Part shown: positions 27,800 through 62,349 of the stretch, one piece after another
Layout: the number at the start of each line of letters is the position of its first letter
Numbering within the stretch: position 1 is the first letter of the stretch
NCBI GenBank assembly: GCA_043228905.1
Contig: JBHGNT010000002.1
Location: 22,010,001-22,074,000 of the forward strand
Length of the DNA: 64,000 bases
Reading direction: 5' to 3'
Source of the DNA: Azolla caroliniana
Taxonomy: Eukaryota; Plantae; Polypodiophyta
Made by a program: the position numbers and the translations under genes
The notes under the pieces: generated by a model
The model's database searches: none
Told to the model about the DNA's origin: nothing
Seen by the model: only the letters and a program-made list of their open reading frames with translations

Positions 27800-27862
<63 letters not shown>

Positions 27863-29400: not shown

Positions 29401-32400
29401 TGTCGTAGTGTATTTTGTACACTACGTGAAAAACGTATATAGTATTAGATTCAATAAAAAATGAAGAAATAGAAGAAAATAGCAAAATAAATGGAACATG
29501 CATAGGGCAAGATTCGAACCTTGCACCTCCATGTTAATAATGTAATGTCTTACTATTACACTAGCATTTCATTAGTGTTAAAGCATAGATGTCCCACATA
29601 GAAAGGTAAATTCACGCTAGGATAAACATTAGAAAAACGCATAACAAAAGAAAAAGCTACACATACACATTTAGCGTGCATGATAAAAAACGCACAAGTT
29701 AGAAAAAAGCATGATCACTTTAGATAAAGCATATAGTCTATCTATAGGAAAAGCATGGGGTCTATAGTTAGAGAAAAAGCATGGATTACTAAGACTTCCT
29801 CATCACTACATAAGGATGGGAAGCACAATGTAATTATGTGTGAAATACTTGGAAACTGGATATGTTTCTAAAAAACACCAATTAATAAACTATACTCGTG
29901 GGATTCACGAGAATTCTATATCATTCTCTTTCAACCGAAGTTTATATTCTTATATTCATATTGATTAATCTAATACAATACACTCGTGGGATTCACGAGT
30001 TTGCTATAACTCTTTCTTACAACATATTTATATTCTTATTAGCCTTAAAACTCTCCTCTTCCTAGTCCAAAACCCTTGCGGTTCCCACCTGACTCACGCA
30101 ACGATCTGGCGCCGAAAGGCACGACACAAGTTGGTGAACCCGACGTGAAGGCGGGTGGCAAGGAGATGGAGAATCAACAAGAGGCGATGAACATGATGAT
30201 GATAATGTTTGAGCGGATGCAACAAGAACAACGTGCGATGTCGGAGATGAAGGCGGCAGTAGAGCGGCTCGTACAACGAAACGGGGAATTCAACGGTAAG
30301 GGTGTGTCACGCTACCTACGTGAATATAAGGCGGAGATGATGCAATATCGGATACCGGAAGGATTGCAAGTGATATCCTTTAGTCGGGTGGCCTCGGACG
30401 AACTACAAGAGAGAATCCACAAGATACAACAACAAAACTCGACATGGGAGTCCTTTGAAGAAGCTTTACGGGAGGCATATGACTATGAGAGATGGACGGG
30501 ACGAGATCGATGAGAATTCGACGAATGGGTGGCGTCGGAGAAGACTCACCGAAGTGCAACGCAAGCGTTCCTAGAGTTCGAGCATCGTTTTGCTCGACTC
30601 TCGGAGCGGGAACGAAGATTGGTGGGAGAAGATAAAGTCTTAATGTTCGTAAGATCGATCGATCGAAAAGAAAGGATGGACATCGGGATCGAACTCGAAG
30701 ATGATGACGGTGCGAACGGTCTTACCGAGGATTGGGCCAAAGTCGAAAGGGTATGCCGAAGACATGATGAAAGGAAGCTGAGAATCTCGTCAACAACGAC
30801 ATGGCCCATGAAGGATGGTCGATTGAGGAAAAACGATGAAGCCAATATGAAGGCCGAAATACAACATGATGGTACCACGGGAGAAAGAGTGGAACAAGAC
30901 ACCCACTCGTCTTGTGAAAGAACGATGGCGAAGGATAAGGCCGATAATTCAAGTGTAGAAGGAAATTTCGGGATACAAGTGCCTGAGACATCGGGTCAAA
31001 AAGGGGTAAGCATAATAGATGTTTGCATAATTGATGCAGATAAAGAGTGTGAAGCGGATGTGATTAAGGAGGTAGCCACAAAAGACGAAATCGAATCGGA
31101 GGTGGCTATGGACGAATCAATGGCGGATTGCCATATCGAGACTTCCCCACCACTGATTCCAGAGACTCCGGCGGTTGCGATCGAAAGGCAACGTGAGACC
31201 GAAGAGACGGAAGGTGGCGGAGAGAAAACGAATGTCGAAGCCGACGAATACGATGAAGAGATAGCCGAGAAGAATGCTAAGGGTGAAACTACGAAAGAAG
31301 GTAATACCGAGGATTCATGCCAACAATATCTAGAGACTTCGGCGGTTGTGTCCGAGAACCAACGTGAGACCGGAGAGACGGGAGATGGCGGCGAGGAAGG
31401 TAAAGTCGGAAGTCGGTTCGGATGGAAAATGATCCATCCGAAATTCCAATCTAAAAGAACGTGCGACAATGCGGAGGTCGGGACTACGACGGGAGAAGCG
31501 CGTAATACAGAGCACGCTCTACGGCGAATAAAGAAACGCGTGTTATGGCGAATAAAGAAGCACGCGCTACGGCGAGAAAAGAAGCATGCATTACAACCAC
31601 ACGAGGACCGAACAACGAGCACATATCGGAGGACCTACGTAGCGAACAACGGAAAGAAGTGCCAAACGTCGAACCGGACAAGGCAGGTGAAAACGAAGAA
31701 AAGAAAGCAAATCCGGACGAAAAGAAAAGAAAAGAAACCGACCCGAAAGAGCACTGAATCGGTAAAAACCGATCAACCGAGTCCGGATCGACCGAATACA
31801 AATCGGAAAGGAAGCCGAACTAAACGAAAGACGATCCGACGAGACCGAATCGGAAGTAAGCTAATCCGACTAAACCGAAAATCCGAAAAGAAGTCGAGAT
31901 TGATGAAGAAAAGAAAGAGGGCAAGAAAAGATACTACCGCGGATGACAAGGACCAAGCGGGCCATGCAAAAAGCGAACGAAGACTATGGTGGATCGGATG
32001 TCGACAATGGTTCGGGTGGAAAGAATGGATGTGCTCCAAATGGAGAGACAAAGTCAACATAACAAGAGAAGTCGAGGGTACTACGAGCCGGCAACGAAAC
32101 CAATCGGGTAGAGACCGGACGGAGGAGACTAACAAACACCAACAACTTCGGCACATACCGGAGGATGTGCGGGTTTGGAGGGGGTGAGTGTCGTAGTGTA
32201 TTTTGTACACTACGTGAAAAACGTATATAGTATTAGATTCAATAAAAAATGAAGAAATAGAAGAAAATAGCAAAATAAATGGAACATGCATAGGGCAAGA
32301 TTCGAACCTTGCACCTCCATGTTAATAATGTAATGTCTTACTATTACACTAGCATTTCATTAGTGTTAAAGCATAGATGTCCCACATAGAAAGGTAAATT

Positions 32401-32914
32401 CACGCTAGGATAAACATTAGAAAAACGCATAACAAAAGAAAAAGCTACACATACACATTTAGCGTGCATGATAAAAAACGCACAAGTTAGAAAAAAGCAT
32501 GATCACTTTAGATAAAGCATATAGTCTATCTATAGGAAAAGCATGGGGTCTATAGTTAGAGAAAAAGCATGGATTACTAAGACTTCCTCATCACTACATA
32601 AGGATGGGAAGCACAATGTAATTATGTGTGAAATACTTGGAAACTGGATATGTTTCTAAAAAACACCAATTAATAAACTATACTCGTGGGATTCACGAGA
32701 ATTCTATATCATTCTCTTTCAACCGAAGTTTATATTCTTATATTCATATTGATTAATCTAATACAATACACTCGTGGGATTCACGAGTTTGCTATAACTC
32801 TTTCTTACAACATATTTATATTCTTATTAGCCTTAAAACTCTCCTCTTCCTAGTCCAAAACCCTTGCGGTTCCCACCTGACTCACGCAACGATCTGGCGC
32901 CGAAAGGCACGACA
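29401..32914 (+). mobile_element. Non-autonomous gag-only LTR element (type A), 3514 bp
   Basis: 726-bp LTRs 29401-30126 and 32189-32914, identical by eye; TSD CCGG; PBS tggtgaacccgacgtgaa (tRNA-Trp) at 30132; G-rich PPT; no pol. Confidence 0.95.
30166..32187 (+). pseudogene. Gag N-terminal domain fused to acidic then basic low-complexity tail (about 673 codons, one internal TGA at 30511)
   Basis: Two in-frame ORFs; GEFNGK..YLREYKAEM, VLMFVRSID and LTEDWAKVERVC align with the helper Gag at 36300. Confidence 0.85.
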
Positions 32915-35900
32915 CCGGCAACCACCAAATGTTGCCGTTTGGCCCTATACATTTGAATGTACTACATCTAGGATCCTTTTGCTCACGTTCCTCTCTTTTG
33001 GGAACGGTTGACGATGATGTTTTCCGAAATTGACAGGCTTCACATACACTTACAATCTCCTTTTCGGTAAAAGTCGGGAGTCTGATGACAACTCCTTTCA
33101 ACTGCATTCCTTTGGGCTTTTGGGGATTGATGTGGCCGATTCCTTTGTGCCACAACTCTATGTCGGTGTCCACTTTACAGCCCTTGGCATACATTGCCGA
33201 TTTCATCTCGTGAGAATCGAGGTTGAACATTCAGCCTTCTCTTCGACCATGAGCGATATTTCAGCCTCCGTCATTGAATCAAACTTGCATGCCTTGTTCC
33301 ACGATCTGGCCGACCGAGACCAGATTCTTCATTATAGTTGGAACATGCAAGACGTTACCCACATGCTGAATGGGGTGAATTGTGTCATCCCCAGTTTCCA
33401 CATATCCGGGCTCTCGAAACCAATCTTCATGAGACGTCATGTGATTGGATGCACCCGAATCGACAAAACATACATTAAATTTTTCCGAGTTGGAGGTACT
33501 TGTCGGACATGCTGCCATCATTGAATTCGCTCTGTGTCGCATCATGAACATTCCATCACGATCTTCGTAATTGGAGTTTGAGGTGCAGTTGGTGAGTTGC
33601 CGGCTTGTGAAGGACGACTCACTCTTCTTCTGTCAACACTTTGCCTCATATTGGCCGAATTTGCCACAATATCCACACTGGGCGGAATTGTTTTGTCGGA
33701 TGGGGGCGGCATGATTGCTCCCCCTTCTACCAGATGCTCTGCCTCGCGCGTTCAACACGTCTTATTGGTAGTAGAAATTGTGTTCTCAAGGTTGTTCCTA
33801 GTTGTATTAGCCTTGGCCAAATCAGCCACTTCTTCCCCGACCTTGTCATCTTCCTCCATTGAAATTCGGATAGAGCATGTGTCCTTGCACATTGCTTCTT
33901 GTCCGAACATAATTTTCTTCGACTAGTAGCATCGACTAGAGATCGAAGAAGGTGGGAGGATTCTCCGTCGCGAGGATGACTGACCTTATCACGCCGAACC
34001 GAGGTGCTAAGCCACCGATGCATATTTGCACCGATTCATCGTTGTCGATGTTGACGTTGATTGACCCGAGGGAGTCACACAACTCCTTGATCTTCAAGGT
34101 GTAGCTTCCGATTGATATGTCCCTCTGTTGTATACTATTCAACTCTTGACGAAGTTGAAGCTTTCTTGCGGTCATGTTGGCCGCGAATATCTTTTTGAGA
34201 TTCCCCCATGTCTCCTTTGGTGTTTTGGCCTCTTGGATACCCACCGAGAAGGTATTGGCGCATCTTGTATTCCCAAGATACAAAGTTGTTTGTGTCGAGT
34301 TTCTCGGTGGGAAGAGCGCTTCCCATATGAGTATTGATGTTGATTGATTTGTATTGAGTGGGTTTTCTTCTTCTCTTGATACGAACAGTGCAGGTTGTTG
34401 TTACAATGATCGGTCGGTTCTTCTTGAACGTAGAGTTAGACACAACACACACGGATATGATAGGCTTGGATCAAGCTACCAAGCGCTTTGATACCATGTA
34501 AAGAATCGGATATGATTCTGTGTAGCGGAAGAGATGTGTGTGTGTGTTGTCGAGAGAGAGAGAGAGAGAATACAATGTATATAGAAAACAACCGAAAAAC
34601 TGTATTCACAAGAACAAGAATGAACCAACTATTACAAAGAGGAGGAGAGAGGTGCTTATGTAATCACCTTCTCTCTATACAACCACCACTTACTAAAGAG
34701 TGGTGGAGACTTAACTACACTAAATATGTGTCATAGAACTTTAAGGTTTTATGACACACTAGTTACTATATTAGGAGGTGGGGTGTTCACACTTGAGTAT
34801 ATTAGGTTGTGTTCCCACACTAGGGAAGTTGAGTTTGATTCTCAACACTAAGAAATCAATGATAGAAATTATGATTGCACTATTGTAGCAATCCATGCAT
34901 AGGCCACTTTACAAATTTCCAATACATCAACTTTTCATCTTTTTAAGTTCTCAAGTTGCTTGATCTTTGGCAAGAATATTGCACATTAGAGGATATCTAA
35001 GATGGAGAACAATCTTATTTCGAATGTCATCAGTGAATTATGAAAAGAAGCATCTTACAAAAGTTCAATCCGGCAACTAAAGCATAAGTCCACTTGCATC
35101 AATAAAAGTCCACTAGGGCACAAAGGTACAATCAACAACATATGGTTACGTGTTTGACGATGACAATTTTACACCTTTTAGACTATTACGGCACCATGAA
35201 CACATTTAGTAGTTAAGGTGTTGAATTCAATACCACTATTACGAACCCTTAAATGTAAATGAAATGTAAAGTGACTAGATACCCTAAACCAAATGTTGAA
35301 AGCCTAAAAAAGAAAGAAATTGAAGAAGAAGAAAACCAAAAAGAAAGAATTCAAAGAAGAAAAAGATTCAAACCATAGACCTAACAAATCTTACAAATAA
35401 CTCTAACTACTACCCTATTCATTTTTGCTTTATTATCTTACTATTTTATACTTTATTAGCTTTACTTTTTTGAGAGTCGACCTCCTACCTAGAGTTGGTG
35501 GGGCTCCTGGTGACAGAAACAGTTAGACAACCAGGCTCCTGGTGACAGAGTCGGGCTCCTAGTGATAGAGGCTGTCAACTTTTTATCCACATCGGACGGT
35601 GCAGATTGCATGTTGTCGTGAAGAAAATCGGCCATAGGCGGAATCAGAGAAAAAGGCGCATGAACCGGCTCTTACATGGGTGGACGCGAGAATTGATATT
35701 TTGTACATAATTCATAATTAGGCCGGCTAATGTAAATACTAGGTAGTACACGTTTCCTAGGGGATTTGTGCGTATCTCTGCCGAAAGGGACAGGGAATAA
35801 AGCGATTTGACAAGGGGGGAGGGTGGTCTCCCCTCAGCGAACTATTTAAGGAAGGAGAGAAGGAAGAGGAAGGGGGGGGTGTGAGCAAGGACGAAGTGTT

Positions 35901-36158
35901 GCAGGATCGAGTGACGAGCTCTCTCTCCTCCTCTGATCGTCATTTTCTGTGGGTGTTGGGAGTTTGACGCCTCTGCTTGGTGGGTAGCCCGTGCGCTGCC
36001 AGCAGAGGCTCTCCCTTCTACGTTTTTTTGGGTCCAGTGTGTTCCGTCTGTGTGCGTGAGTAGGGTCCCCGTGTCGGGTCCATCGCTGGCTTGCCGGTTG
36101 TAACCGTCAGAGTTTGTAATCTCTTGATATTGTAATCGACTGTTATTGTAATTAGAGG

Positions 36159-36194
<36 letters not shown>

Positions 36195-36299
36195 TGGTTC
36201 AAGGCCCTCGTGGTCCCGCCTCTTTCTGCACGCGAAGTGCGTGATAACACGACATATTTGGTGAACCCGACGTGAAACAGGCGGCAAAGGAGTCGGAAG

Positions 36300-38426
36300 A
36301 TGAGGGGATCGGAGCTAACAGAGGCAATGGCGGTAGCCGTCGACCAGCTGGTGAGCGCTCGCGAGGGGACGGGTACCCTCGACAGAGCCATTGAATCGAT
36401 CGTCGGTAGCATAGGCCGATTTGGTGGGAAGAATCCCACAAGTTATTTGGAGGCTTACCGGGCCGAAATGATCATGAGGGATATCCCGGTGGACATGCGG
36501 TTGTCCGGATTCCCTCGGGTGGTGACGCCGAGCATCCACGTGGAGGTGCTGGCCGGATGCCAGACTTGGGAGGAGTTCGAGCTGCAGCTCCTCGAGAAGT
36601 ACGAGTTTGATGACTCGCTTCGGCTGTCGAGGCGGGACTTCATGGCGTGGGTGGAAAGCCCCGGAAAGGGGAGGAACACGTCGGCGCTCCTCCAGGAGTT
36701 CGAAAAGCGATTCGCGCGGCTGTCGACGCTGGACCGGACCGTGCTCGAAATGAGTCGAGTACTACTGTTTGTCAAGTCGGTGAACGCACTCGATAGGGAA
36801 AGGGTGGGTCCCCTATTGGAGACGGACGAAGGGCTCACGACAGACTGGGCCGTGGTAAAACGGGTCTGCAGCCGTTTCGACAAACGACGCGAGTGGAGCG
36901 ACGAAAGCTCGTCTGAGTCAGGACCGGTCCCGACGAGGAGGCTCGAGGAGCCGGTATCGGTGCCAGTTGGTAGGAAGGAAGAGACCCGAATTTGGCTGGA
37001 GTCGGGGTCGGCATCGAACGATGTGGTCAGAGGCCCATCCGGAGGAGCGGCTCTAGAGGAGCTGACACAGATGGTGCGCGACCTGCAGATTGCACAGGCC
37101 CGGAGAGACAGCGGCGAACAACCTCGCGACCGGAGGCCGCTGGCTAGGCAATGGTGCATGTGGTGTGATGCGATCGGTCACATTCGGAAGGATTGCGCGG
37201 ATTTTGCTGACGCACTCAGGACCAACGTGGTGTACCTCTGGAACGGGCGGGTGCACGCGAGCGAGACCCGGAGAGCCTTAGAACTGAATACGGGGCGCGA
37301 CGGAATGAAGAAGTTGATGGAAGAGGCCGCGACACGGCATGTAGAAGCCGTTAACTACTCAATGTCGGTGGGAATTCGAGTTGGGGGTGATGAGAACCGG
37401 AAGACGAAGGACTCCGGATTCTGGCCGCTAGTGCAAGAAGGCCTCTCTGGAGTTCGGCTGAAGAAGGAAGAGGTGGACCGCGCGGAACAACGGGTCTAGG
37501 AGGTCACCAGATGGGACAATCCGGTCGAAGAGAAAACGGGCTTCGTAGAAGCCGCTTGCCAGAACTACGAGGTTCTAGTGGAAGACAAACGGGCAGGAAA
37601 GGCAGGAGGGGTCGGTCCCCCGCAGAGGTACGAGACCCGGTTCAGACCGAAACCGACTGGTACCGGCAACCCAGGCGCGCCGAATGGGAAGAAGTAGGCG
37701 GGGTTTCGGTTGAGCACTGAAATCGAGAGAGCAATAGACCTACGGAAGGTCCTTGAAGAGCGAATCCTCGACAATAAAGTGGAGATCTCGTTGCGGGAGG
37801 TGCTGGGAATCGCCAAGAGGGAGTTCCACGACTCCATCGTAGACTTGGTGAAGCCGAAGAGGCTCTCGATGGAGCCGGAACCGGAGAAGCCAATGGAGGT
37901 GCGGCCTACGCACGTAGAAGACACGACCCTAGAAGACGAGTTGGCTGAAAGCCACTACGCGAAGCCGCATTGGGCCAGGGCAACTACAGAAACCCTTGTG
38001 CGGATCGGCGACGTTCCGGAACCGGTGGTGGCGTTGGTAGACCATGGATCCGAAATCAACCTGATGTCCATGGATTTCTACAAGAAGGGCAAATGGCCGA
38101 TCAACACCAGGCATCGGTGGAAGATACGCGTGGCGGCGCGTGCTACGGAGGAGCTGCATGGTGCGTGCCCGAAGGTACGCGTAAAGGTCGGTGATGTCGA
38201 AATAGATCAACATTTCTTCGTGCAGGAAACATCTTCGCACCCGGTGATTCTTGGCGAACCGTACATTACGACAACACACATGGAGACGAAGGTGCTGGAC
38301 AACGGTTCGGCGTACCCGCGCGTCAAGAGCCAAGACGGTCGGCATTCCGTCCAGTTCATGACCGTACGTCCGAACCATGAGAGGAATCGCGAGAACCTCG
38401 ACGGCGACAACCGAGGGGATTTTTAG
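36300..38426 (+). pseudogene. Helper gag-protease ORF (two internal TAG)
   Basis: CMWCDAIGHIRKDC knuckle and VALVDHGSEINLM protease in one frame, stops at 37497 and 37696. Confidence 0.9.
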
Positions 38427-38482
38427 AAAGGGCTATCAAGGCGTGGGGCCGCGGTAGTCCGGACGTATCGGAAGACCCCCAC
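38417..38482 (+). promoter_or_regulatory. Putative -1 programmed ribosomal frameshift signal (G GAT TTT plus H-type pseudoknot)
   Basis: Heptamer 38417-38423 directly before the gag-pro stop; 6-nt spacer; stem 1 gggctatc/ggtagtcc; stem 2 gtgggg/ccccac; the -1 frame is open into RT. Confidence 0.7.
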
Positions 38483-39238
38483 ACATGTACAGTAGGTAGG
38501 AAGTTTTGGTTCTCTGAAAACGGAGGTTGTACTATAGCCGGCGTCAGCGGCCGGGAGAGGAAGCGAGTGGAGGAGCGGCTCAGGGGATGCGGAGTCCTCT
38601 CCATCGACGAAGAAATCAGTGGCACCATGGAGGCGGTCTCTTTTGACGACACCTTGGGCGAGTTGCGAAAGGTGATCAGTGAAGTCCTTAGAGGAGACTG
38701 GACCGTTCCGGTTAGTTCGATGGGAATGTACGAAGTCATTGCGGACTTTTGGGAAAGGATCGGGTCGGATCGGACGGCCCGTGTGGATACAAAGTACAAG
38801 ACTGTGGACCGAAAGGTGAGGCCAGTCACGACACCCTTGCCGGAGGGCAGCGAGGAGCGGATAAAAGGGGTCGCGTCGGACCCAAGTTTACGGAATCCAG
38901 CTGGCATAGGGCACCGGTTCACCGACATAACACTACGGGAGCTCAAGGTCGGTGGGGGTGGCTTTCTACTGTCGGAGGAGATCGGGTGCGTGGACCCAAC
39001 GATCGTTGAACCGATGGTGATCTTCACGATACCGCCTGTACCGTGGAATCTCAAACCGATTCCGGTGCCAAGAGCTCACATCCCGAAGTTGATGGAGCTT
39101 CTGAAGCAAAAGGTGGAGATGGGCATCCTCGAACCGTCGAGTGCCCCATATTCGAATCGGTGGTTTACGGTGCCAAAGAAGAACGACACGTTGCGCTTCA
39201 TTCAGGACTTGCAACCGGTCAATAGGTTGACCATCCGT

Positions 39239-42200
39239 TGTCACGTTGTTACGCGCGTGCGTGTAGAAGGGCGGGACCACGGGGGTCTTGGACTAGGGAG
39301 TGGAGGAGAAAGATTAGCTCAAGAGGAGAAGAGAACGAATATGACAATATGATAGAAGAAGAAGATGCAATCAAGATACTTAACAAGAAGTTCTATTAAG
39401 AAATGAACGATTACAACAAATGGTGGCCGCCATGGCCGCACCAAACGACTATATGAAAAACCCTAAAGGAAAACCCAAGAAGAAAAGCCTAACCGAAACC
39501 CTAACCCTAAAATGAAATTGGAAGAAGTAGAACCCTCGACTAAGTGGTATACCTTACTCACACAAAATAGGCAACCCCCACAATGGTGCCTTCTCTCTCC
39601 TTTTATAGCACAAGGAGGGAAGACCGCTTACAAAAGTGAGACTAAAATATCCCCTTTCATTCAAATGGGATATTTGCCTTGATTTGGGGGAGGGTGAGAT
39701 TGATGGCCCCTTAACTCCCACCTCCTCACAAACAACTAGGTACCTATGTACCGCATAGTACCTCTCTCTCTCTCTCTTTCTCTCGCGTGGATGTGCGTAC
39801 AACCACATCACCTTTATACCTTTATTACTATTACAAATACATTATGTACGTGTGCAACGTTGTACATCGCTCTTTGGCTTTCGTTGCTCGAGTTTCCGCT
39901 TGTGGACGAAAATCTTCACGACATCCGCCCCCACCTAACCGCACATCCTCCGGTATGTGCCAAAACATAGGGGAGAGAACACGAGATTTTCGGCCACGAC
40001 GACCGACCGAGTCCTTAGTGTCCTCGTGGGCCCGCCCGGCTTTGTCTTCCACTTCGAGCAAGACCACCCCATCCTCACGAACCGCCGCCGCCTTCCGGCC
40101 CACCATCCTCGCCGAATGGTCTCGAACCGTCGGCGCCATCCGATCCGCCACACTCGACGATGTTCGCCGAGTCGTTGCCTCGACCCGATCCGCCACGTCC
40201 ACCGTGGGTCCTTGAACCACCAACTACATCCGACCCGCCGTATCCGATGCCCGTGCTTTCCTCCCTGTTCGGTCCTCCCGAACGCCGTCGCCGACCCGGT
40301 TGCTCTTCCTTTGTCCGCCTCGTATATCCTCCGGATGCACTCCCGGTCGCATGCCAGATTCCGCCCTTTGCGTGCCGCACACCTCGGCGTGCCGACTCTC
40401 TCCGCTCCGCGCTTGCCTTCCGTAGGCTTTCCCCGTATGTCGATGTTGCCCTCCAAATGCGTGCTCGTGCTTCGGTCCTTCGATGACCCCATCACGCGTT
40501 TTTCGCTTTCCCCTTTTTCGCCGTGCTCTGTCGTAGTAGAGCGTATCGTCATCCCGACCTCCGTGTCGGTGTCCCTCGAGGCTCTCGTTATCGCCTCGCC
40601 TCGACTTGCGCCCTCTTGGCCCGCTTGGCCTTGTATGCCCTCCGGGAAGCCGCCGCGCTTTCTCTTCCCGGTGTGTACCCCGTTGTTCTCTGCGCATCTC
40701 CTCCGTTTTCCTAGATATGACTCTCCGCTCATGCCGATCGCGCTCGGCCCATGTCGTCGATCTTGGTGTTTCGCCGCGCCGTCCTTTGTCTCGCGCTTGC
40801 CTCTCGAAGGCTTGACCCAACCGTCATCGTCGGTCAATTGTTGTCGCCCATCCGCCGTATGCATGCTTGTGTCTTGGCCCTCCACCGGCCGTATTGCATG
40901 CGTCTCGTGTCGTGCTTCCGCCGTAGACCCGACCTCCGCGTCAGTCTCCAACTCCTCGCCGCCACCCACCGCTTCTTCGTTCTCCTTTCGATCCGCGACC
41001 GCCGATGCCTCACGGGTAGGTGTGGAGGGTTCCTCCCACTCTCGGTTTACCACCGAGTCCTCGCCTCTCAAAGGCTCAATCGGTCCACCGTTTCCGGTCA
41101 CTCGTTGACGCTCTCTCGGATGCATGCTCGTTCTTGGGCCCTTCACCGACCGTAGTGCATGCTTCGTGTTACACCCTTCATCTGCCGTAGACCCAACCTC
41201 CGCGTCGGCCACCAACTCCTCGCCGCCACCCGCCGTCTCTCCGGTCTCACGTTGATCCGCAACCGCCGAAGTCTGTAGAATGGGTGTGGAAGGTCCCTCT
41301 CGCTCTCGGTATTCTAGCAAACCGTGATCACCGTGCCCACTAGGCCTCCTTCTCGCTCTCACCGGCTCCCACCGTAACCGTACCCGGCCGGCTACGAATC
41401 GATCAAACAATCCCGGTCTTGCCGGCTTCCTTCGGTTCGTGCCCGGTTGATCGGCCCCCGCTTCACTCTTCTTCCGCTCCGCCTCCCGGTCGGGTCGGTT
41501 CCCGACTCGCTCCTCGATGCCGCTCCGGACCTCTCCTTCGGTCTTTTCGCACGTGCCCACTCTGGGCCTCTCATCCTCACGGCCACCGCCCATCTCCCCG
41601 GTCTTATGTCCGCGCTCGGGCGCAACCGCCGAAGTCTCCGGCCCCGGTGTCGAGGGATCTCGCCTCCGTCCGCTACAAACCTCCTCTTCGTCATTTCGGT
41701 TGCCCGCCTTGCCGCCGCCACCGTCCGTCTCTCTAGGTCTCACACCGGCTCTCGGGCCGGTTGCCGGAGTCTCTAGGACCGGTGTGTGGAAGGTCGCGGC
41801 ACCGCCGCTCGTCTCCTCTTCTTCCTCGATTTCGCAAGCCTCGAGTATGCTCGCGAAATCCTCGTAGAACGTTTCGGGCAACCGCGTCCCGAAACTTTCG
41901 CCCACTCTCGAAGTGGCATCCATTGCTCCGTAGATATCGGCCTCATCCATGGCCGTCCTCTTTCCACAAGTCGAGAGGGTCGCTCGCTCCACACCCTCTC
42001 CCACATCGTTGCCGTGGTCGTCCGCCTTGTCGCCGCCACCGTTCATTACCCTAAGTCTCACGCGGGCACTCGGGCCAGCCGCCGCGGTCTCTTGAACCGG
42101 TGCGTGTAAGGTAGCAACGCCACCGCTCGTCGATGATATGCCCGTAGCCACCTCCATTCGGACATCGTCGTCCGTGGCTACCCCGCCTCCGTATGTGCAA

Positions 42201-44086
42201 GCATCAATTATGCTTGCCGCCTCCTCTTCCACGGTCTCCATACCGTCGTCTCGGTTGCCCGCCTTGCCGCCGCCACCGCCCGTCGCTCTAGGTCTCACGC
42301 CGGCAATTGGGCCGACCGTTGGTGCCTCTAGGGCCGGTGTGTGTAAGGTTGCGGCACTGCCGCTTGTCTCCTCCTCCCTCGATGTTTCGGGCCGCCATGT
42401 CCCGAATCCGTAGTTACCGGCCTCCATGGCCGTCCATTCGCCGCAAGACGAGAGAGTCACTCTTCCCGCACCCTCTCCCACATCGTCGCCGTCGTGGTCG
42501 CCCGCCTTGCCGCCGCCACCGCCCGTCACTCTAGGTCTCACACCGGCTCTCGGGCTGGTTGCCGGAGTCTCTAGGCCCGGTGTGCGTAAGGTTGCGGCAC
42601 CACCGCCCGTCTTCTCCCCGCTCGATGTTTCGGGCCTCCATGCCCGAACTCCTTCATGTTCGCTCGAATCGGCGATCGCCGCCTCACCGTCCCCGACCTC
42701 GTCCTCGGTCGATCTTTCTCCGCATGTCGAGAGGGTGGCTCGCTCCGCACCCTCTCCCGTGGTACCGATGTACCATTCTCTTTCGGCCTCCTCATCCTCC
42801 GATCGCCTCCGGCCCGACTCCATAATAAGCCCTTCTTCGGCTTCGATTTTCCCCTTCACAAGCTCGCATGCCTCCCGTATTAGTGCTTCTAGGTCTAGCT
42901 CCTCCGAACCGTTTTGCGTTGAGCTCTCTTCCGGCGGTAGTGCGTACTCACTCGCCGCTCTCTCTTCTCCACCGTTCGCGGGCCATGTTGTTGCCGACCG
43001 CTCCCCATCGGGTTGCCCGCATACCCACTCCGGTTTCGCGTATCCATACGCTTCCAATAGAGCTCCCTCGAAAGACTCCCATGACTCGTGAGCTTCTCGT
43101 AGCTCCTTGACGTCCTTGTGCACCGATACGGCCGCCACTCGCGGAAAATACTCTAGTCGCATCGCCTCGTCCACGCCCCCTTTTGCCATCTCGGCCTTGT
43201 AGGCTCCCAAAATTTTTAGGACCTCATTCCCATTGAACCGGCCGACTCGATCGACCACCCTTTCGACAGCTTGTTGAGCCGCATCTCGCTTCGCCATCTT
43301 CCGTCCGGCTTCCATCACGATTTTTGCCATCATCTCCTCGAAGTCGAAGTCTTCTTCCATTTCCATGCTCCCTTGCCGCCCTTCACGTCGGGTTGACCAT
43401 CCGTTGTCGCGTTGTTACGCGCATGCGTGTAGAAGGGCGGCACCACAGGGGTCTTGGACTAGGGAGTGGAGGAGAAGATTATCTCAAGAGGAGAAGAGAA
43501 CGAATATGACATTATGATAGAAGAAGAAGATGCAATCAAGATACTTAACAAGAAGTTCTATTAAGAAATGAACGATTACAACAAATGGTGGCCGCCATGG
43601 CCGCACCAAACGATTATATGAAAAACCCTAAAGGAAAACCCAAGAAGAAAAGCCTAACCGAAACCCTAACCCTAAAACGAAATGGGAAGAAGTAGAACCC
43701 TCGACTAAGTGGTATACCTTACTCACACAAAATAGGCAACCCCCACAATGGTGCCTTCTCTCTCCTTTTATAGCACAAGGAGGGAAGACCGCTTACAAAA
43801 GTGAGACTAAAATATCCCCTTTCATTCAAAGGGGATATTTGCCTTGATTTGGGGGAGGGTGAGATTGATGGCCCCTTAACTCCCACCTCCTCACAAACAA
43901 CTAGGTACCTATGTACCGCATAGTACCTCTCTCTCTCTCTTTCTCTCGCGTGGATGTGCGTACAACCACATCACCTTTATACCTTTATTACTATTACAAA
44001 TACATTATATACGTGTGCAACGTTGCACATCGCTCTTTGGCTCTCGTTGCTCGGGTTTCCGCTTGTGGACGAAAATCTTCACGACA
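39239..44086 (-). mobile_element. Non-autonomous gag-only LTR element (type B), 4848 bp, inserted in the helper RT
   Basis: LTRs 39239-39923 and 43405-44086 with few differences; TSD CCGT; PBS tggtcaacccgacgtgaa; PPT aggtgggggcgga; no pol. Confidence 0.95.
39935..43366 (-). CDS. 1143-aa protein: about 110 aa of Gag N-terminus plus a long repetitive low-complexity tail
   Basis: Uninterrupted ORF filling the internal region; VGRFNG..AYKAEM..WESFEGALLEAY matches helper Gag; ATLHTPxLETPAxGPRAGVRPRxTGGGGGKAG-like repeats occur four times. Confidence 0.8.
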   Translation of the reverse strand: MEMEEDFDFEEMMAKIVMEAGRKMAKRDAAQQAVERVVDRVGRFNGNEVLKILGAYKAEMAKGGVDEAMRLEYFPRVAAVSVHKDVKELREAHESWESFEGALLEAYGYAKPEWVCGQPDGERSATTWPANGGEERAASEYALPPEESSTQNGSEELDLEALIREACELVKGKIEAEEGLIMESGRRRSEDEEAEREWYIGTTGEGAERATLSTCGERSTEDEVGDGEAAIADSSEHEGVRAWRPETSSGEKTGGGAATLRTPGLETPATSPRAGVRPRVTGGGGGKAGDHDGDDVGEGAGRVTLSSCGEWTAMEAGNYGFGTWRPETSREEETSGSAATLHTPALEAPTVGPIAGVRPRATGGGGGKAGNRDDGMETVEEEAASIIDACTYGGGVATDDDVRMEVATGISSTSGGVATLHAPVQETAAAGPSARVRLRVMNGGGDKADDHGNDVGEGVERATLSTCGKRTAMDEADIYGAMDATSRVGESFGTRLPETFYEDFASILEACEIEEEEETSGGAATFHTPVLETPATGPRAGVRPRETDGGGGKAGNRNDEEEVCSGRRRDPSTPGPETSAVAPERGHKTGEMGGGREDERPRVGTCEKTEGEVRSGIEERVGNRPDREAERKKSEAGADQPGTNRRKPARPGLFDRFVAGRVRLRWEPVRARRRPSGHGDHGLLEYREREGPSTPILQTSAVADQRETGETAGGGEELVADAEVGSTADEGCNTKHALRSVKGPRTSMHPRERQRVTGNGGPIEPLRGEDSVVNREWEEPSTPTREASAVADRKENEEAVGGGEELETDAEVGSTAEARHETHAIRPVEGQDTSMHTADGRQQLTDDDGWVKPSRGKRETKDGAAKHQDRRHGPSAIGMSGESYLGKRRRCAENNGVHTGKRKRGGFPEGIQGQAGQEGASRGEAITRASRDTDTEVGMTIRSTTTEHGEKGESEKRVMGSSKDRSTSTHLEGNIDIRGKPTEGKRGAERVGTPRCAARKGRNLACDRECIRRIYEADKGRATGSATAFGRTEQGGKHGHRIRRVGCSWWFKDPRWTWRIGSRQRLGEHRRVWRIGWRRRFETIRRGWWAGRRRRFVRMGWSCSKWKTKPGGPTRTLRTRSVVVAENLVFSPLCFGTYRRMCG

Positions 44087-46068: not shown

Positions 46069-48052
46069 TGCTTAACGAATTTGACGAAAGCAGGTACGAC
46101 GGGGAGTGGCTCCAAATCGGGAGGTTCCTACGGGCGATGACGCCGGACGCAGCGTGGACAAGAGAAGAGGCGAGCTGGGTACGGAAAAAGGCGTACCGAT
46201 TCTTCCTACGGGACAGGTGCATATGGAGGCACCCAAAGAAAAGAAACAACATCCTGCTCTGAGTAGTGGCAAAGGAAGAAGAATAGGAGGAATTACTGGC
46301 GGCATTTCACGAGAGTCCCTGGACCGGGCACCGCGGAACGTGGGCCACATTTGAGAAGCTGAAGGAGAAGTACTGTTCGCCGAGGCTGTACCGGGATGTG
46401 CATCGGTTCTTAACGACTTGCGAAAGCTGTCAGATGCACTCCGTAGTCCGTCATCGGGACGAACTACAGCCGACCTACCCGCCTACGGTCCATTTCAAGT
46501 GGATGGTGGACTTGGTGACAATGCCGATGGGAGTAGGACAGATGCGATACCTGGTGCTTGCGTGAGAAGATTTAACGAACCAGGTGGAAGGCCGTGCACT
46601 GCAGAACAAGACAACCGCGGCGGTATGCCGGTTCCTGACCGAACAAGTAGTGTGTCGGTACGGGTGCATCGGGAAGATCGTGGCGGACCGGGGAGAGCTG
46701 GATGCGCGGGAAGTTGAGGAGTTGTTCGACCGGCTAGGGGTCAAACTCTCCCTCACTACGGCGTACAATCCAGAAGCGAACGGGAAGGTAGAACGTGGGC
46801 ATGGGCCGATTGTAAAGGCGTTGGTGCGTGCGTGTGGAGGGCAGGTCAGGAATTGGCCGCGGCTCCTTCCTTACGCACTATGGGCGGACCGAACTATGCA
46901 CAATTCGGTGACAGGGTTTATACCGGCAGAGCTGATGTATGGACAGAAGCCGATCATGCCGGTGGAATGGACGGTTTCTTCATGGGCGGCGGTAGATTGG
47001 AAGGACGAGATGAGCCGGGAGGACTTGCTGGCGGCGCGGATTCGGCAACTCGAGCAGAGGCCGGAGGACATAAAAAGGGCAAAGGAAAAGCTGCGGGCGG
47101 CAAGGGAGCGGAACAAGACCCGGTTCAACCGGACGCACCGGTTGCGAACCAAGAAGATCGAGGAAGGTGACTGGGTCTTGGTGTACGACAACAACCTCGA
47201 CAATCAGCACAAGGCGGTGCGAAAGTTCGCGAGGAGATGGTTTGGGCCCTACACGGTGACGAGCGCGAACGACAACGACACGTACCACCTTGCGGAAGTC
47301 GACGGGACACGGTTAGCGGTACCGGTGGCCGGGAAGCGGGTCAAAGTGTTCAAGAAGCGGTTCGAAGACGAGCCAGAGCCGGCGAGCGAGAGCGACAACG
47401 ACGATCGGTTTGGGCCCGACGAAGAATCGGAGAGCGACGAGTGAAGCCGGTTTTGTTCGGTGTCTACCCGTCTTTGGCGCATGCCGGTGGATGCGCGGTT
47501 TGGTGGGGGTGGATGTCGTGAAGAAAACGGGCCATAGGCGGAATCAGAGAAAAAGGCACATGAACCGGCTCTTACATGGGTGGACACGAGAATTGATATT
47601 TTGTACATAATTCATAATTAGGCCGGGTAATGTAAATACTAGGTAGTACACGTTTCCTAGGGGATTTGTGCGTATCTCTGCCGAAAGGGACAGGGAATAA
47701 AGCGATTTGACAAGGGGGGACGGTCTCCCCTCGACGAACTATTTAAGGAAGGAGAGAAGGAAGAGTAAGGGGGGCGTGTGAGCAAGGACGAAGTGTTGCA
47801 GGATCGAGTGACAAGCTCTCTCTCCTCCTCTGATCTTCATTTTCTGTGGGTGTTGGGAGTTTGACGCCTCTGCTTGGTGGGTAGCCCGTGCGCTGCCAGC
47901 AGAGGCTCTCCCTTCTACGTTTTTTTGGGTCCAGTGTGTTCCGTCTGTGTGCGTGAGTAGGGTCCCCGTGTCGGGTCCATCGCCGGCTTGCTGGTTGTAA
48001 CCGTCAGAGTTTGTAATCTCTTGATATTGTAATCGACTGTTATTGTAATTAG

Positions 48053-48122
<70 letters not shown>

Positions 48123-48941
48123 CCTCGGTTCAAGGCCCCCGTGGTCCCGCCTCTTTCTGCACGCGAAGTGCGTGACAACACAACAACGCGCCCTCAGTTG
48201 AGCAACCTGCACCGTCTGTGCCCACGATTCCCTCACTTGCCCTCTTTAATATTTGGTAGTAGTTAGACACGAGCGATATATATACATATACATATGTATA
48301 TATATATGTGTGGTTGGTGACTATTTCCTACCAAATCGTAATGAGGCCCAATGAAGGACTCACGATTGTTAGAGACGGTGCTAGGGCGTGTTTCAATAAT
48401 CCGATGCGATCGGCATCGTCAAATTATTATCCTCACAAAATAGTGTGCCCTTAACTAACCTAGCTTTGACCAGCCTCTATCACGTATAGGTCAGGTAGTT
48501 CGAATTTCTAGCCCAACTCTATCATGTCTAACCTAGGAGTTTGTCACATCTAACCTAGCTCTCTCCAACCTTTGTCAAGTCGGACCCCCGACTTTGTTCT
48601 TGCTTCTGTCACGTCTAACTTGGCCCAAAGTTGCTAACTCAACTGACTTTTTTTTATAACCCGGACCCCCCCTTTCTAACCGGGCGCAAGTTTCGAACCA
48701 AGTTATTTGTTTCTAACCCTAAACATATTCAAAAGTCAAAACCTCTTGGTTTTCAATATAAAAACTCCACTCACCAAAACCTTGGGCCATCATCGAATGT
48801 AAACAAAAAGTCGGAAATCATTGCAAACACCTAAGCTTCTCATGTTTCATCTATCGCAAAAAATTTAGCCAGTATTTTGAAGAGACTAGAACCTTGAAAG
48901 ATCACAAAATTTTAGTTACGAAAAACTTTGAAGATAACACA

Positions 48942-57466: not shown

Positions 57467-60400
57467 TGTCGCGTTGTTACACGCGTGCGTGGGGAAAGGC
57501 GGGACCACGGGGGTCTTGGACTAGGGAGCGACGGAGCGTAGGAAGTCGTGCTTCACTGTTTCCGGGGCATCCCAGAAGCACATCGAAAGCAACCGAAGGG
57601 AGAGAGAGAGAGAGCGTGCTTAACACTGACCCACGCACACACACACACGCACACACACACACCCCAACCCGACTCACGCCTTATGTACGGAAAACGCAGG
57701 AAAGGGTAGGCACCCGACGCCAACAACGACGCGAATATACACAGACAAACGTATATATATATATACATATAAAGGGAAGAATACATTCCCGACGTCGAGC
57801 CGGACTGAGGTAGGTTACAGTAGTCGTCTGCTGTCAAGCCGTCGTCGAGGAGCTCTCAGCTCGTCGCGCCAAGCGGGGTCTTGCACAGGAGGCCGAACCA
57901 AAGCAAACCATAAGCAAAACACGAAGAAGGAGAAGAAGAAGAAGAAGAACCTAACTTTAAACCTAACGGTATACCCTCTAATGCAAAATGGGCAACCCTT
58001 TCACAAAGGGTGTTCCCTTCCTTTTATAGAACAAGGACAGGGATGCGTTATAATGTGGGATAAACCCCAACTTACATGGGACCGTCTATCCCGACTTGAC
58101 TACTCTTCGGCGCCATAAAGGCGCCCTCGTTATTCACACTAAATTTACAAGGGTGAGCACACACGCTGCACCCCGCCGATGTAGCCAATGTTTCCTAGGT
58201 TCCGCCTCTGGCCGAAATTCTTCACGACATCCGCCCCCACTTAACTGCACGTCCACCGGTAAGTGCCAAATCTGGTTGAAGGGTGAGAGATTTCGGCCGG
58301 TGAGAAACCGGTCTCCCGTGATTCGCATCTCAGCTCACTGCCGGTTTGATCCGTCGGCTTCGAGTCTTCCTTCGCGCTCGCCTCCCTGTAGGCTCGTTCG
58401 ACCCGTCAATGGGTCCTCTGCCGCGATCTCCGTAGTATACGTACTTCCGTTGGCCCTTGTTCGGCCGTATGAACGCCCCGCTTCCCGCCGTATGCCCGAT
58501 GTCCTCCGTTTGAGGCATGCCCGTAGTGGCCCGCTTGGCCTTCGTTGTCCAATCGTGATGTCCTGATGGTCGTCCCATGTTGTTTCACGTTGCCTTCGTC
58601 CTTTCGCCACCTTCCTTCTCCATGGTCTTACATCGCCGCGTCGGCTCGAACCGCCATGGTCTCCGAAATACTGTGGAGGATCCCTTTCCGGCCTGATCGT
58701 GCATCTCCGCTCACCCACATACCGGTGTCCTTTGCATCCGAGGAGCACCCAGTAGTAGCCCGCTTGGCCCTTCCCGTCTTCGTGCTGCTGCAACAGGTCC
58801 CGAGTCTTCCGCTTGCCGTCGTCCCCTCGCCCGCCAGCTTGTCACCCCAGGCTTGCCGTGTCAGTCTTCGCTACTTCGACGGAGCTCCCGAGATCTACGA
58901 AGCGAGTGTGGAGGATCCTCCTCCGGCCTCTCTTGCCATCCCCTGACTCCGACCCTGTGCAGTCCACTAGGCACTTGTCACCTCATTCCCGGCACCTCCC
59001 TCGTGTCGTCTTCCGCTTCCTCTGTTCGGCACCGCCCATGCCGAACACTGTCCCGTAGTCACGCTTCGACCCGGCCTGCGATGGCCACTTGCGAGACTCT
59101 TGTTCTGTCCAAGGTGTGCCTTTCCGACCTGACACACCTCCCCGTGTTTGCCGCTACCGACTCCTTCCGAAACCTCGTGTCGTCGGGTCCCGTTCCCTGC
59201 CGCCACCGTCCTTCTCCATCGGTCTTACGTTGCCGCGTTGGCCGATCAGCCGGGGTCTCCGGATCGGTGTGAGGGTCCCATAGGACCGGACTCCATTTCT
59301 ATACTTGCCGAAATTCGGGTGTCTTTGTTTGAGTCCCTCCTGGACTCTCCTCGTGTCTTCCGCGTAGTCGGGTCTCGTTTCCCGCCATCACCTTCCTTCT
59401 CCCTCGGTCTTACGTTGCCACGTTGGCCGAATAGCCGGAGTCTCTGGTTGGTGTGGGGATCCCGTAGGACCGGACTTCCTTACGCCCATAGCCTTCGTCA
59501 CCTCGCCGCCACCGTCAGTATCTTGGTCTTATGTCGACCGCGTTGCCGACTGCCGAAGTCTCTAGATCCGGTGTGAAGGATCCTCCGTAGGCCGCCGATC
59601 CGTAGCCCTTGCCTTTGTCACCTCGCCGCCACCGTCAGTATCTTGGTCTTATGTAGACCACGTTGCCGACTGCCGAAGTCTCTAGAACCGGTGTGGAGGA
59701 TCCTCCGTAGGCCGCCCATTTGTATTCCCGACCTTGTCCCGGGTCGTCCTTTTCCGCATGCCGAGAAGGTGGTTTACTCCGCACCCTCTCCCGTGGTACC
59801 GACGTACCGTGTCCTCGGCCTCTTCGTAGGCCTGCTCTCTTCCTCCCTCCCGGAATGGTCATCCGGGAGTCCGCTCCACCCGGGTCCATTCGTCCTTCTC
59901 CGGATTGCCGAGTCCCGTTCTCCTGTCGCCACCGTCTTCTCTTATAGGACTCACGCCGGCACTCGGGCCTGCAGCCGGATCGGTGTAAGGAATCCCATAG
60001 GACCGGCTTCATTCTCTTTCCAAATCTCGACCTTCGCCCGGTCGGTCTTTCTCCCCATGTAAAAGAGGGTGGCTCGTCCCGCACCCTCTCCCGTATCGGC
60101 ACCTTTATGCCGAGTCCGGCCCCGATCGAACAATCCACGACCGGATTACGCTCCTTCCGTATCGGAATGCCGATCTCATCGTGTCGTGTCCGTCCCTGGC
60201 CTTCTCGCAGGCCGTTTCCCATCCGTCTTCGCTAGGATCGTGCCAGGACTCCTCGGTACCGCCATCCATCTCCTCGGTCTTACATGGGCATACGGGCCCG
60301 AATGCCGAGTTCTCCGGAATCGGGTCCGTGGGATTTCGTCCGCTCCTTCCCCGTATCGTCTCGCCGGTGATTCTTGGCCCTTCGCCGCCGCCTTCCTCCG

Positions 60401-62349
60401 CTTGGGACTCACATGGGCACTCGGGCCCGACTGCCATCGTCTCGGGAGCAAGTGTGGGAAGACACAAGGAATTGCCCGTCCGTTTTACGCCCTTATCCGT
60501 AGCCACCGGCTCTCCGTGGTCGGTGGTCGACTTCTTACCGATCGCGCAAGCCCCATCTGGGCTTGCTTCTTCAATGACCGGGATCTCGGGTTGACACGCC
60601 CGAAACCGTTGGTCCCAACGTTCCAGTTCCGAGATCTGTATCTCAGCCTCGTCCTTGGTCGTTCTCTCTCCGCAAGTCGAGAGGGTGTTTTGTTCCGCAC
60701 CCTCTCCCGTGGTACCGTTGTACCGATCTTCCGCCGTCGCGTGGGGCAAGTTCGTCTCCTCGGTCTCGGCTTCCGGCCTCGATCTTCCTTCTTCCTTGAG
60801 CATCGCTTTGAGAGCTTCGTACGCCTCCGCAATCCTGACCCCAACGCCGACCCTTGCCGACTCTCTTTGCCGTTCGGCCTCTTCCCGCTGTGATGGCACG
60901 CCGTCGCGTCCCTTCCTCTTAGCCCTCTCGGCTCGCTCATCATCTAGCCGTTGGCACACCCTTCCGACCTTCGACCAGTCCTCCGTAAGCCCATTCGCTC
61001 CATCATCGTCTTCGAGCTCAATCCCGATGGCTTCCCGATCCGCTCGGTCGATCGACCTGACGAATAAAAGGACTTTGTCCGCCCCCACCAAACCTTGTTC
61101 CCGCTCCGGGAGCCGAGCAAGCTGTCGCTCAAACTCTTGGAACGCCTTCCTCGCGCCTCGGTGGGTCTTTGCCGATGCTACCCATTGGTCGAAGTCGTGT
61201 CGTCCCCGGCTCTTCCGCCGTCCTCCGTATGCCTTCAGGAGCGCCTCTTCGAAGGCCTCCCACAAACCATGAGGCTCACGAAGCTCCTTTACTTCCGCAT
61301 GCATCCGGACCGCTACGACCCGACAAAAGAACTCCAGCCTCAACGCCTCGTCTACGCCACGCCCCTCCATTTCCGCGTTGAATGCTTCCAAGGAAGATGG
61401 GACTTTGTCCCCGTTGAAACGGCCGACTCTTTCGACCACTCGCTCAACCGCTTGTTGCGCTGCTTCTCGCCTCATCACCACTCATGCCGACTCCAACACC
61501 ACTTCGGCCACCATCTCCGCAAGGTCGTCTTCTTCCGACTCCATGCTCCCTTGCTGCCTTTCACGTCAGGTTCACCAAATATGTCGCGTTGTTACGCACG
61601 TGCGTGGGGAAAGGCGGGACCACGGGGGTCTTGGACTAGGGAGCGACGGAGCGTAGGAAGTCGTGCTTCACTGTTTCCGGGGCATCCCAGAAGCACATCG
61701 AAAGCAACCGAAGGGAGAGAGAGAGAGAGAGCGTGCTTAACACTAACCCACGCACACACACACACGCACCCACACACACCCCAACCCGACTCACGCCTTA
61801 TGTACGGAAAACGCAGGAAAGGGTAGGCACCCGACGCCAACAACGACGTGAATATACATAGACAAACGTATATATATATATACATATAAAGGGAAGAATA
61901 CATTCCCGGCGTCGAGCCGGACTGAGGTAGGTTACAGTAGTCGTCTGCTGTCAAGCCGCCGTCGGGGAGCTCTTAGCTCGTCGCGCCGAGCGGGGTCTTG
62001 CACAGGAGGCCGAACCAAAGCAAACCCTAAGCAAAACACGAAGAAGAAGAAGAAGAAGAAGAAGAAGAACCTAACTCTAAACCTAACGGTATACCCTCTA
62101 ATGCAAAATGGGCAACCCTTACACAAAGGGCGTTCCCTTCCTTTTATAGAACAAGGAAGGGGATGCGTTACAATGTGGGACAATCCCGACTTACATGGGA
62201 TCGTCTGTCCCCGACTTGACTACTCTTCGGCGCCATAAAGGCGCCCTCGATATTCACACTAAATGTACACGGGTGCGTACACACGCAGCATCCCGCCGAT
62301 GTAGCCAATGTTTCCCGGTTTCCGCCTCTGGCCGAAATTCTTCACGACA
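57467..62349 (-). mobile_element. Non-autonomous gag-only LTR element (type C), about 4.9 kb
   Basis: LTRs 57467-58229 and 61582-62349, visibly diverged; PBS tggtgaacctgacgtgaa; PPT aagtgggggcgga; flanks ACGT/ATGT; no pol. Confidence 0.92.
60105..61544 (-). pseudogene. Gag N-terminal domain plus low-complexity tail (TGA at codon 21; tail continues frameshifted towards about 58240)
   Basis: AAQQAVERVVERVGRFNG is shared with type B; KVLLFVRSIDR..GIELEDDDGANGLTEDW is shared with type A. Confidence 0.85.

Follow-up and report, generated by a model that had tools for sequence, protein, structure and literature searches.

Three LTR elements, A, B and C, within a window of 64,000 nt of the Azolla caroliniana genome (contig JBHGNT010000002.1) probably form a single old lineage of Phygy-like, Pol-less LTR elements, in which autonomous relatives likely copy the elements in trans, the N-lobe of an encoded capsid likely docks into the helper particle, and a basic, Trp/Arg-rich end of a long tail likely holds the element's own RNA, replacing the lost zinc knuckle. 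Drawn from sequence comparisons, this joint reading is given a probability of about 0.55. Besides H, the autonomous element of the window, the helpers comprise H1 and a second autonomous family, H2. The window contains the following features.

29401..30126, plus strand: element A, 5' LTR, with termini and U5 of H2 type
30132..30148, plus strand: A, PBS, tRNA-Trp(CCA)
30166..32187, plus strand: A, Gag-tail frame of 673 codons, its N-lobe derived from H2 and the remainder, C-lobe plus tail, from the Pol-less lineage; an in-frame stop lies early in this copy, at 30511-30513
31978..32052, plus strand: A, terminal Trp/Arg-rich motif of the tail
32189..32914, plus strand: A, 3' LTR, with the PPT just before it; target duplication CCGG
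35614..48185, plus strand: element H, Phygy-like autonomous element, broken, with gag including CCHC, DUF4100, protease, RT, RNase H and integrase; B is inserted in its RT region
39239..39923, minus strand: element B, 3' LTR; target duplication CCGT
39935..43366, minus strand: B, ORF of 1143 aa, N-lobe only, then a modular acidic/basic/Trp-Arg-rich tail up to the PPT
43383..43399, minus strand: B, PBS, a variant in the window copy
43405..44086, minus strand: B, 5' LTR
57467..58229, minus strand: element C, 3' LTR
58230..60104, minus strand: C, 3' region, decayed tail modules without an open frame, all three frames neutral
60105..61544, minus strand: C, ORF of 479 codons, both capsid lobes and a tail of 274 aa; the window copy has an early in-frame stop at codon 21
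61561..61577, minus strand: C, PBS
61582..62349, minus strand: C, 5' LTR

The helpers carry the 4-bp NCGN target duplications and the tRNA-Trp PBS of Phygy, a clade described as also lacking a chromodomain and an extra ORF (Neumann et al. 2019, PMC6317226); likewise, Pfam detected RT, RNase H and integrase, and no chromodomain or extra domain, in the two open pol frames searched (L164, L216). Phygy is described in that source as P. patens-specific and 7.7-10 kb long, whereas the present helpers reside in another plant and measure 7.1-7.3 kb (7.08-7.34 kb in four copies, slightly under the moss range of 7.66-9.97 kb). A distant Gag relative is A9U5C3 of Physcomitrium patens. In the part of the Phygy description available to us (PMC6317226), Pol-less Gag-tail satellites are not mentioned.

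LTR pairs were found at the stated ends of all four elements, with identities of 100% in A, 97.4% in B, 94.8% in C and, over its main block, 96.9% in H. The termini TGTCG..CGACA and the pre-PPT/PPT stretch are common to the elements, as is the U5 motif, except that A and H have variants of it. The PBS corresponds in sequence to the 3' end of tRNA-Trp(CCA) genes of the genome; its pattern has 62 matches in the genome, and the loci checked were tRNA-Trp in four of four cases. Target duplications of 4 bp are exact for A and B, but contain one mismatch in C and two in H. Among copies with resolved ends, NCGN was present at the right flank in 15/15 of A, 15/18 of B, 9/9 of C and 3/4 of H, such duplications being common to A, B, C and the Phygy-like Ty3 helpers. 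The expectation that A shares its cis signals with H was not borne out: its termini, spacer, PPT and LTR match H2, while the termini of B and C match H/H1. Insertions of A are young, with a median LTR identity of 99.9% (n=15).

The absence of pol is confirmed, since protease, RT, RNase H and the integrase core were found in none of 68 LTR-bounded interiors, in six of which the match to H2 pol is confined to its final 27-47 codons, adjoining the PPT; the CCHC knuckle and the protease motif, absent in 18/18 Pol-less ORFs, are present in 6/6 autonomous ORFs. Three B copies (L055, L063, L071) and the sample copy L170, each with pieces of pol in the vicinity, have no LTR pair and were read as nested insertions. 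The description of the encoded Gag as a truncated fragment of 110-200 aa has to be revised, as A and C have a complete two-lobed capsid and the C-lobe is missing in B alone (0/40 copies of B retain it). Similarly, the claim that each internal region is essentially one frame applies to A and B, whose frames run to the PPT, and not to C, in which a stop at 479 aa is common to copies and the other 1.9 kb is interrupted by stops in all frames; this stop and the long non-coding 3' part recur in other hosts (L234, L247). One reverse frame poor in stops was rejected as an antisense ORF and is presumably a shadow of the open sense frame. Element sizes are 2.8-3.6 kb for A, 4.1-6.1 kb for B and 4.1-6.5 kb for C. 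No Pfam family, Gag included, was detected in 4/4 Gag-tail proteins, and Foldseek returned nothing at E<=0.001, its top rows being Arc/dArc/Ty3; the similarity to Gag capsids rests on fold and Atlas features. Being invisible to Pfam, Pol-less elements would be missed by domain-based annotation.

The original prediction of a satellite radiation of a non-chromovirus Ty3 named single-copy elements, tails not open in consensus and a pol-bearing version of each family as observations that would speak against it. It is supported: A, B and C are multicopy (40 scored candidates each), the A and B tails stay open, and neither the metagenome loci nor the 68 LTR-bounded interiors contained a version with pol. 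Pol-less elements account for 37 of 90 sampled Trp-primed sites, about two fifths, and C, whose tail is short and which has 1.9 kb of 3' sequence that does not code, for 16-18 of these 90; such successful spread of C counts against the preferred reading. N-lobe-only forms have amplified, their junctions in two subfamilies occurring in at least 116 and at least 89 copies genome-wide, while the one C-lobe-only junction counted was found once, versus 65 of the parent type; two further C-lobe-only copies, L170 and L189, lie outside this junction count.

Regarding their origin, a tree of the C-lobe places A, B and C on one side of a branch (100/99) and rejects A with H2 (p-AU 0.040), whereas in the N-lobe tree A groups with H2 (100/99) and A with B and C is rejected (p-AU 0.014), the tree tool warning in this analysis of long branches meeting. 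The DNA identity of A crosses over near residues 95-115, and the H2-derived piece is contiguous with the LTR and PBS. At the level of sequence, A is thus shown to be a recombinant whose LTR and N-lobe were captured from H2. The C-lobe clade of A, B and C has a long stem and is separate from all pol-bearing families, and pol-type sequence followed this C-lobe in none of 50 metagenome loci. Because they have their own C-lobe clade, and relatives of the lineage are present in other hosts, A, B and C are not the products of fresh deletions. Contigs of three runs compared with A contained only fragments of relatives and are uninformative on transcription.

Within the Pol-less lineage, purifying selection acts on both capsid lobes. 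The dN/dS of the capsid is 0.05-0.45 with kappa 1 and 0.07-0.6 with kappa 4, and A, C and B2 each encode a complete capsid under selection; between the N-lobes of A and H2 the value is 0.13-0.18, the differences being largely synonymous. In the N-lobe of B after loss of the C-lobe, the comparison of shared and private variants was not significant (p=0.13). The ratio of 0-fold to degenerate diversity increases from 0.51 in the capsid to 0.77 in the A tail, 0.84 in the B tail and 0.98 in the C 3' control. In the tails, of 270-1040 aa across elements and predicted to be disordered, the frame is retained and the sequence is weakly constrained except at the conserved Trp/Arg-rich end. Stops in A- and B-type tails number 0 against 23-33 expected from shuffles, in copies chosen as open; in the B tail they are depleted among shared variants (1/368, against 22/715 private ones; p=0.001), as they are in the C tail (p=0.03), whereas the C 3' region shows no such depletion (p=0.5). 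Frameshift depletion in B was significant with one of two references only (p=0.021 and 0.59). Internal repeat offsets are divisible by three in 8/8 cases in the A and B tails and in 0/3 in the C 3' region, and four shortened A copies retain the frame to the Trp motif. Pairwise, the tails evolve near neutrality (dN/dS 0.7-1.05 with kappa 4; one pair 1.36), and their private variants have an N:S no different from that of the shared ones (p=0.09-0.29). A protein from another source, P0128, keeps 20/23 residues of the Trp/Arg motif at an overall identity of 35%. The tail does not appear to descend from helper pol or spacer sequence, a source that was dismissed because 10 autonomous interiors match it only in the last 22-110 nt.

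Under the preferred reading, the protein would be made, co-assemble with helper particles and favour its own RNA; since their cis signals match, B and C would use H/H1 enzymes and A those of H2. The N-lobes of B and C, only 37-49% identical to those of H/H1, may be too distant for co-assembly, which counts against docking. More tentatively, Gag may have been reduced to a docking adaptor, composed of a swappable N-lobe, a disordered linker and an RNA-catching end, with a lobe swap amounting to a helper switch, a design maybe as old as the Phygy-like lineage. In P0179, cited for this possible age, the capsid is 29-33% identical and the acidic tail continues into the pre-PPT motif. Alternatively, the protein could be a by-product of selection on RNA, the frame open to the PPT guarding against nonsense-mediated decay or coupling translation to packaging, and the N-lobe stretch being an LTR-adjacent packaging signal that is kept and swapped. 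Such a scenario, which we regard as rather unlikely, agrees with tails that conserve frame and hardly sequence, with the termination of the A and B frames at the PPT and with the contiguity of the H2 piece with LTR and PBS in A; likewise, as the test on the B N-lobe was not significant, an RNA signal could be what maintains that stretch. It is at odds with the clear purifying selection on both lobes, the mainly synonymous changes between the A and H2 N-lobes, a Trp motif conserved far over background, and the conserved stop and long non-coding 3' part of C, in other hosts too.

An N-lobe-only capsid alone cannot close a shell. The two highly amplified N-lobe-only subfamilies therefore speak against A, B and C being mutualist donors that supply shared particles with capsid, as do the missing zinc knuckle and a tail of 270-1040 aa per subunit, which would be unlikely in a bulk shell; we consider this explanation improbable even with the complete, selected capsids of A, C and B2 and the precedent published as a proposal for wheat RLG_Quinta (PMC11302176). 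A restriction function, in which the fusions poison helper assembly and are kept for copy-number control, is equally unlikely. Half-capsid proteins do exist here, one of the structures matched by fold is a Ty1 CA-CTD restriction factor (9rxy, Z 6.9), and Ty1 p22, Gag's C-terminal half made from the autonomous element itself, is inhibitory and blocks assembly (PMC8458377; PMC4599808). As in p22/p18, a half-Gag with an Arc-like capsid fold could meet full Gag; nevertheless, the present proteins belong to separate mobile elements, helper-dependent and still mobile rather than domesticated single loci, and the half that spreads is the N-lobe, with a single counted C-lobe-only junction. None of the three has a C-terminal capsid domain without the N-terminal one, A and C being complete and B N-lobe only, and the genome also contains young helpers whose frames are open (LTR identity 99-100%). 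Competitive interference with the helper as a side effect is possible. Finally, although the LTR and N-lobe of A derive from H2, the view that each family arose by simple, recent deletion within its own autonomous element, with junk sequence as filler, is already contradicted by the sequences, namely by the long-stemmed C-lobe clade, the tail matches confined to the ends of the autonomous interiors and the metagenome loci.

In comparison with known systems, A, B and C work like TR-GAG elements, outside strict membership. They have LTRs, PBS, PPT and target duplications, one capsid-like ORF without enzymes and at least two copies, and share with TR-GAG, as described by Chaparro et al. (2015, PMC4350172), the single Gag ORF, the lack of pol, the multicopy state and a presumed mobilisation in trans. 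TR-GAG1, whose 433-aa ORF keeps a zinc finger, has a length under 4 kb, as for TR-GAG in general (the HMM search of that paper allows 1-6 kb), and a 5-bp duplication, whereas here a modular tail of 270-1040 aa replaces the zinc knuckle, helpers are identifiable and the duplication is 4-bp NCGN. A is within the size limit; B and C, at 4-6.5 kb, exceed it, and because of this and the 4-bp duplication the three are not filed as strict TR-GAG. RLG_Quinta of wheat, which forms a centromeric chromovirus pair with a single partner, RLG_Cereba (PMC11302176), is likewise an old non-autonomous lineage with Gag and an additional domain (DUF1, compared by description), termini, PBS and PPT common with its partner, and recombination near the Gag region. 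The present elements differ in being non-chromoviral, in having two helper groups with a helper switch at the capsid lobe linker, and in their half-capsid subfamilies and low-complexity tail. No description of this capsid-tail design was found in the literature searched, which did not extend to subscription journals and bioRxiv supplements, and we regard A, B and C as a variant of TR-GAG/RLG_Quinta-type elements not previously described in that literature.

Why non-autonomous LTR elements retain Gag is an open question of both the TR-GAG and the RLG_Quinta papers (PMC4350172, PMC11302176). Forms with a whole capsid, with the N-lobe only and with the C-lobe only, which differ greatly in copy number, offer natural experiments on it, to which the recombinant A, its helper changed at the lobe linker, adds a further one, and the choice between donor, parasite and restrictor becomes testable with small purified domains.

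Self-comparison recovered four LTR pairs within the window, G000:C2:22010001-22074000, whose retroelement content is as follows:

4849-6207, - strand: LTR like that of the autonomous family H1, 88% identical to copy L220, with internal duplications
8679-11096: Ty3 gag-PR-RT fragment
27843-34848: copia-type gag element surrounding A
29401-32914, + strand: A, a Pol-less element with a capsid fused to a long tail
35614-48185: H, a broken autonomous Phygy-like Ty3 element
39239-44086, - strand: B, a Pol-less capsid-tail element inserted in the RT region of H
45333-45613: 54-bp unit repeated five times in tandem, in H, separating RNase H from integrase
51649-57467 and 62349-64000: copia pol, the insertion site of C, possibly with an inverted duplication across C
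57467-62349, - strand: C, a Pol-less capsid-tail element

The elements have common cis signals, among them a PBS complementary to genomic tRNA-Trp(CCA). Where the ends of a copy could be resolved, target duplications were exact in 13/15 A, 12/18 B, 6/9 C and 2/4 H. Both tRNA-Trp priming and 4-bp NCGN duplications are defining features of Phygy in the REXdb table (PMC6317226). In the window copy of B, 14 nt covering spacer and PBS start (43391-43404) are identical to the target beyond the 3' LTR (39225-39238), and the spacer/PBS junction is unlike that usual in other B copies; gene conversion between the two junctions is the likely origin of this identity. Tandem clusters of tRNA-Trp-like 3' ends lie at G000:C8:17796786-17823371 and C16:4989495-5105637 of the source genome, the ARAGORN check of such ends covering four loci, all from outside these clusters. 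In the autonomous elements, at 38417 in the window, in L164, L216 and nine further copies, a gag-protease ORF of 680-708 aa has a conserved GGATTTT heptamer just before its end; next come a predicted hairpin and then pol, in the -1 frame. The heptamer is a candidate ribosomal frameshift site, located after the protease and not before it.

A search of the 523-Mb genome, which has 22 large contigs, returned at least 40 scored candidates for each of A, B, C and H, and the copies examined (20/39, 39/39, 20/39 and 20/39 of the other matches, respectively) were the closest ones, a non-random sample. As for the Pol-less structure, no enzyme domain was found in any of 68 interiors bounded by LTRs, which came from 53 of the 82 copies examined and 15 of the 37 sampled. 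For an unbiased census, 90 of the 3,617 exact LTR-end/Trp-PBS sites of the genome were classified; these were the first 90 on C1, of which 30 were short loci and 60 long ones. Pol-type sequence followed the capsid at 41 of them, assigned to H, H1 or H2 by best match, while 37 were tail-bearing (95% interval 32-51%) and 12 truncated or other; none of the 90 had pol-type sequence behind a Pol-less-type C-lobe. The tail is open: the frame runs unbroken from start codon through the Trp/Arg-rich terminal motif in 16/21 A copies, 11 of which encode 673 aa and end at the PPT. A stop at 479 aa is common to C copies, and the C-type frames of two loci from other hosts, L234 and L247, stop at the same place as C. 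Head-to-tail A-type arrays spaced by ~2.8-2.9 kb, at G000:C3:11235507-11242068 and C16:15409115-15415466, probably share LTRs.

The original prediction had assumed a truncated Gag in all three families. An AlphaFold model covering residues 1-221 in an A copy with an open frame has two helical lobes (pLDDT 87.7, 38-row alignment) and resembles Arc, copia and retroviral capsids. The model matches dArc1 with Z 10.5 (rmsd 7.8, 161 aligned), residues 32-107 the Arc N-lobe with Z 8.4 (rmsd 2.4) and residues 111-206 the Arc C-lobe with Z 8.5 (rmsd 2.9); on this modelling, A and C encode a whole capsid. The C-lobe is missing from 40/40 B copies, and both lobes are present in the sister form B2 (L210, 1249 aa). 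Counts of exact patterns, which are lower bounds, gave 116 and 89 for two independent junctions that leave only an N-lobe. For the junction in L206, which leaves only a C-lobe, the count was one, and for its parent type 65. The A and B tails run from acidic through basic to Trp/Arg-rich and are predicted to be disordered; only at the Trp motif does the prediction, made from a 16-row alignment, show a helix, and this with low confidence.

The capsid is under selection, pairwise dN/dS of the Pol-less lobes being 0.05-0.45 (kappa 1) and that of helper capsids 0.11-0.14; most tails give 0.5-0.8, or 0.7-1.05 at kappa 4. After loss of the C-lobe, the B N-lobe still gives 0.05-0.44, which suggests purifying selection; the shared-versus-private test was not significant (p=0.13). 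With DNA-level ascertainment, 0-fold/degenerate diversity ratios were 0.51 for the capsid, 0.77, 0.84 and 0.91 for the A, B and C tails, and 0.95-0.99 in every frame of the C 3' region; columns are non-independent, which makes the p-values of this comparison rough. Terminal motifs gave 0.49-0.70 (p 0.01-0.23), and 20/23 residues of the motif are kept between L203 and P0128, a protein from another source. Stops are rarer among shared tail variants; the same test found no depletion in H gag (p=0.53), probably owing to recurrent mutation in old copies, and is consequently blunt.

The Pol-less elements have a single origin, and A is a recombinant. In the N-lobe, A has 62-73% identity with H2 and 36-41% with B2/C; in the C-lobe, the values are 35-40% for H2 and 56-73% for B2/C. 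In 23-row trees A groups with H2 for the N-lobe (alternative rejected, p-AU 0.014) and with B and C for the C-lobe (p-AU 0.040); larger lobe trees held 89 and 88 of 105 rows, the second being a quick tree. LTR, spacer and PPT of A are H2-like, and the B/C LTR is common with H/H1 only over the last 55-75 nt. P0128 combines an N-lobe of B/C type with a C-lobe and tail of A type, which fits an exchange in which A would have acquired the 5' part of H2. The Pol-less-type C-lobe was found at 50 metagenome loci in seven assemblies (70-91% DNA identity to genome copies), most with tail matches and all 50 devoid of pol-type sequence. The retroelements mark the host as a plant, and distant Gag relatives bear the names Adiantum, Riccia and Physcomitrium. 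Two distant Gag proteins (~30% identity), P0179 and P0197, have acidic tails and no CCHC zinc knuckle; P0179 ends in an RQWFG stretch and the translated conserved pre-PPT motif, a hint that another lineage may also have Gag-tail elements without pol.

Gag without pol is a known design, described for the gag-only TR-GAG elements (PMC4350172), for RLG_Quinta, with Gag, DUF1 and recombination around gag (PMC11302176), and for families of sugar beet that show reshuffled LTRs and remnants of Gag (PMC13570524). Our literature search found no description of three features of the present elements: the modular tail that lacks a knuckle, the lobe asymmetry and the proposed helper switch at the lobe linker.

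As to mechanism, an explanation at the RNA level appears rather unlikely, and both Gag donation and a p22-like restriction of the helper, the latter entertained in the original prediction, are improbable. We favor mobilisation by helpers, in which B and C would be mobilised by H/H1 and A by H2, with the N-lobe acting as the docking part. In retroviruses, RNA is bound by basic and aromatic residues, and by this precedent the basic/Trp end may capture the element's own RNA. Taken jointly, helper mobilisation, N-lobe docking and own-RNA capture would have a probability of roughly 0.55.
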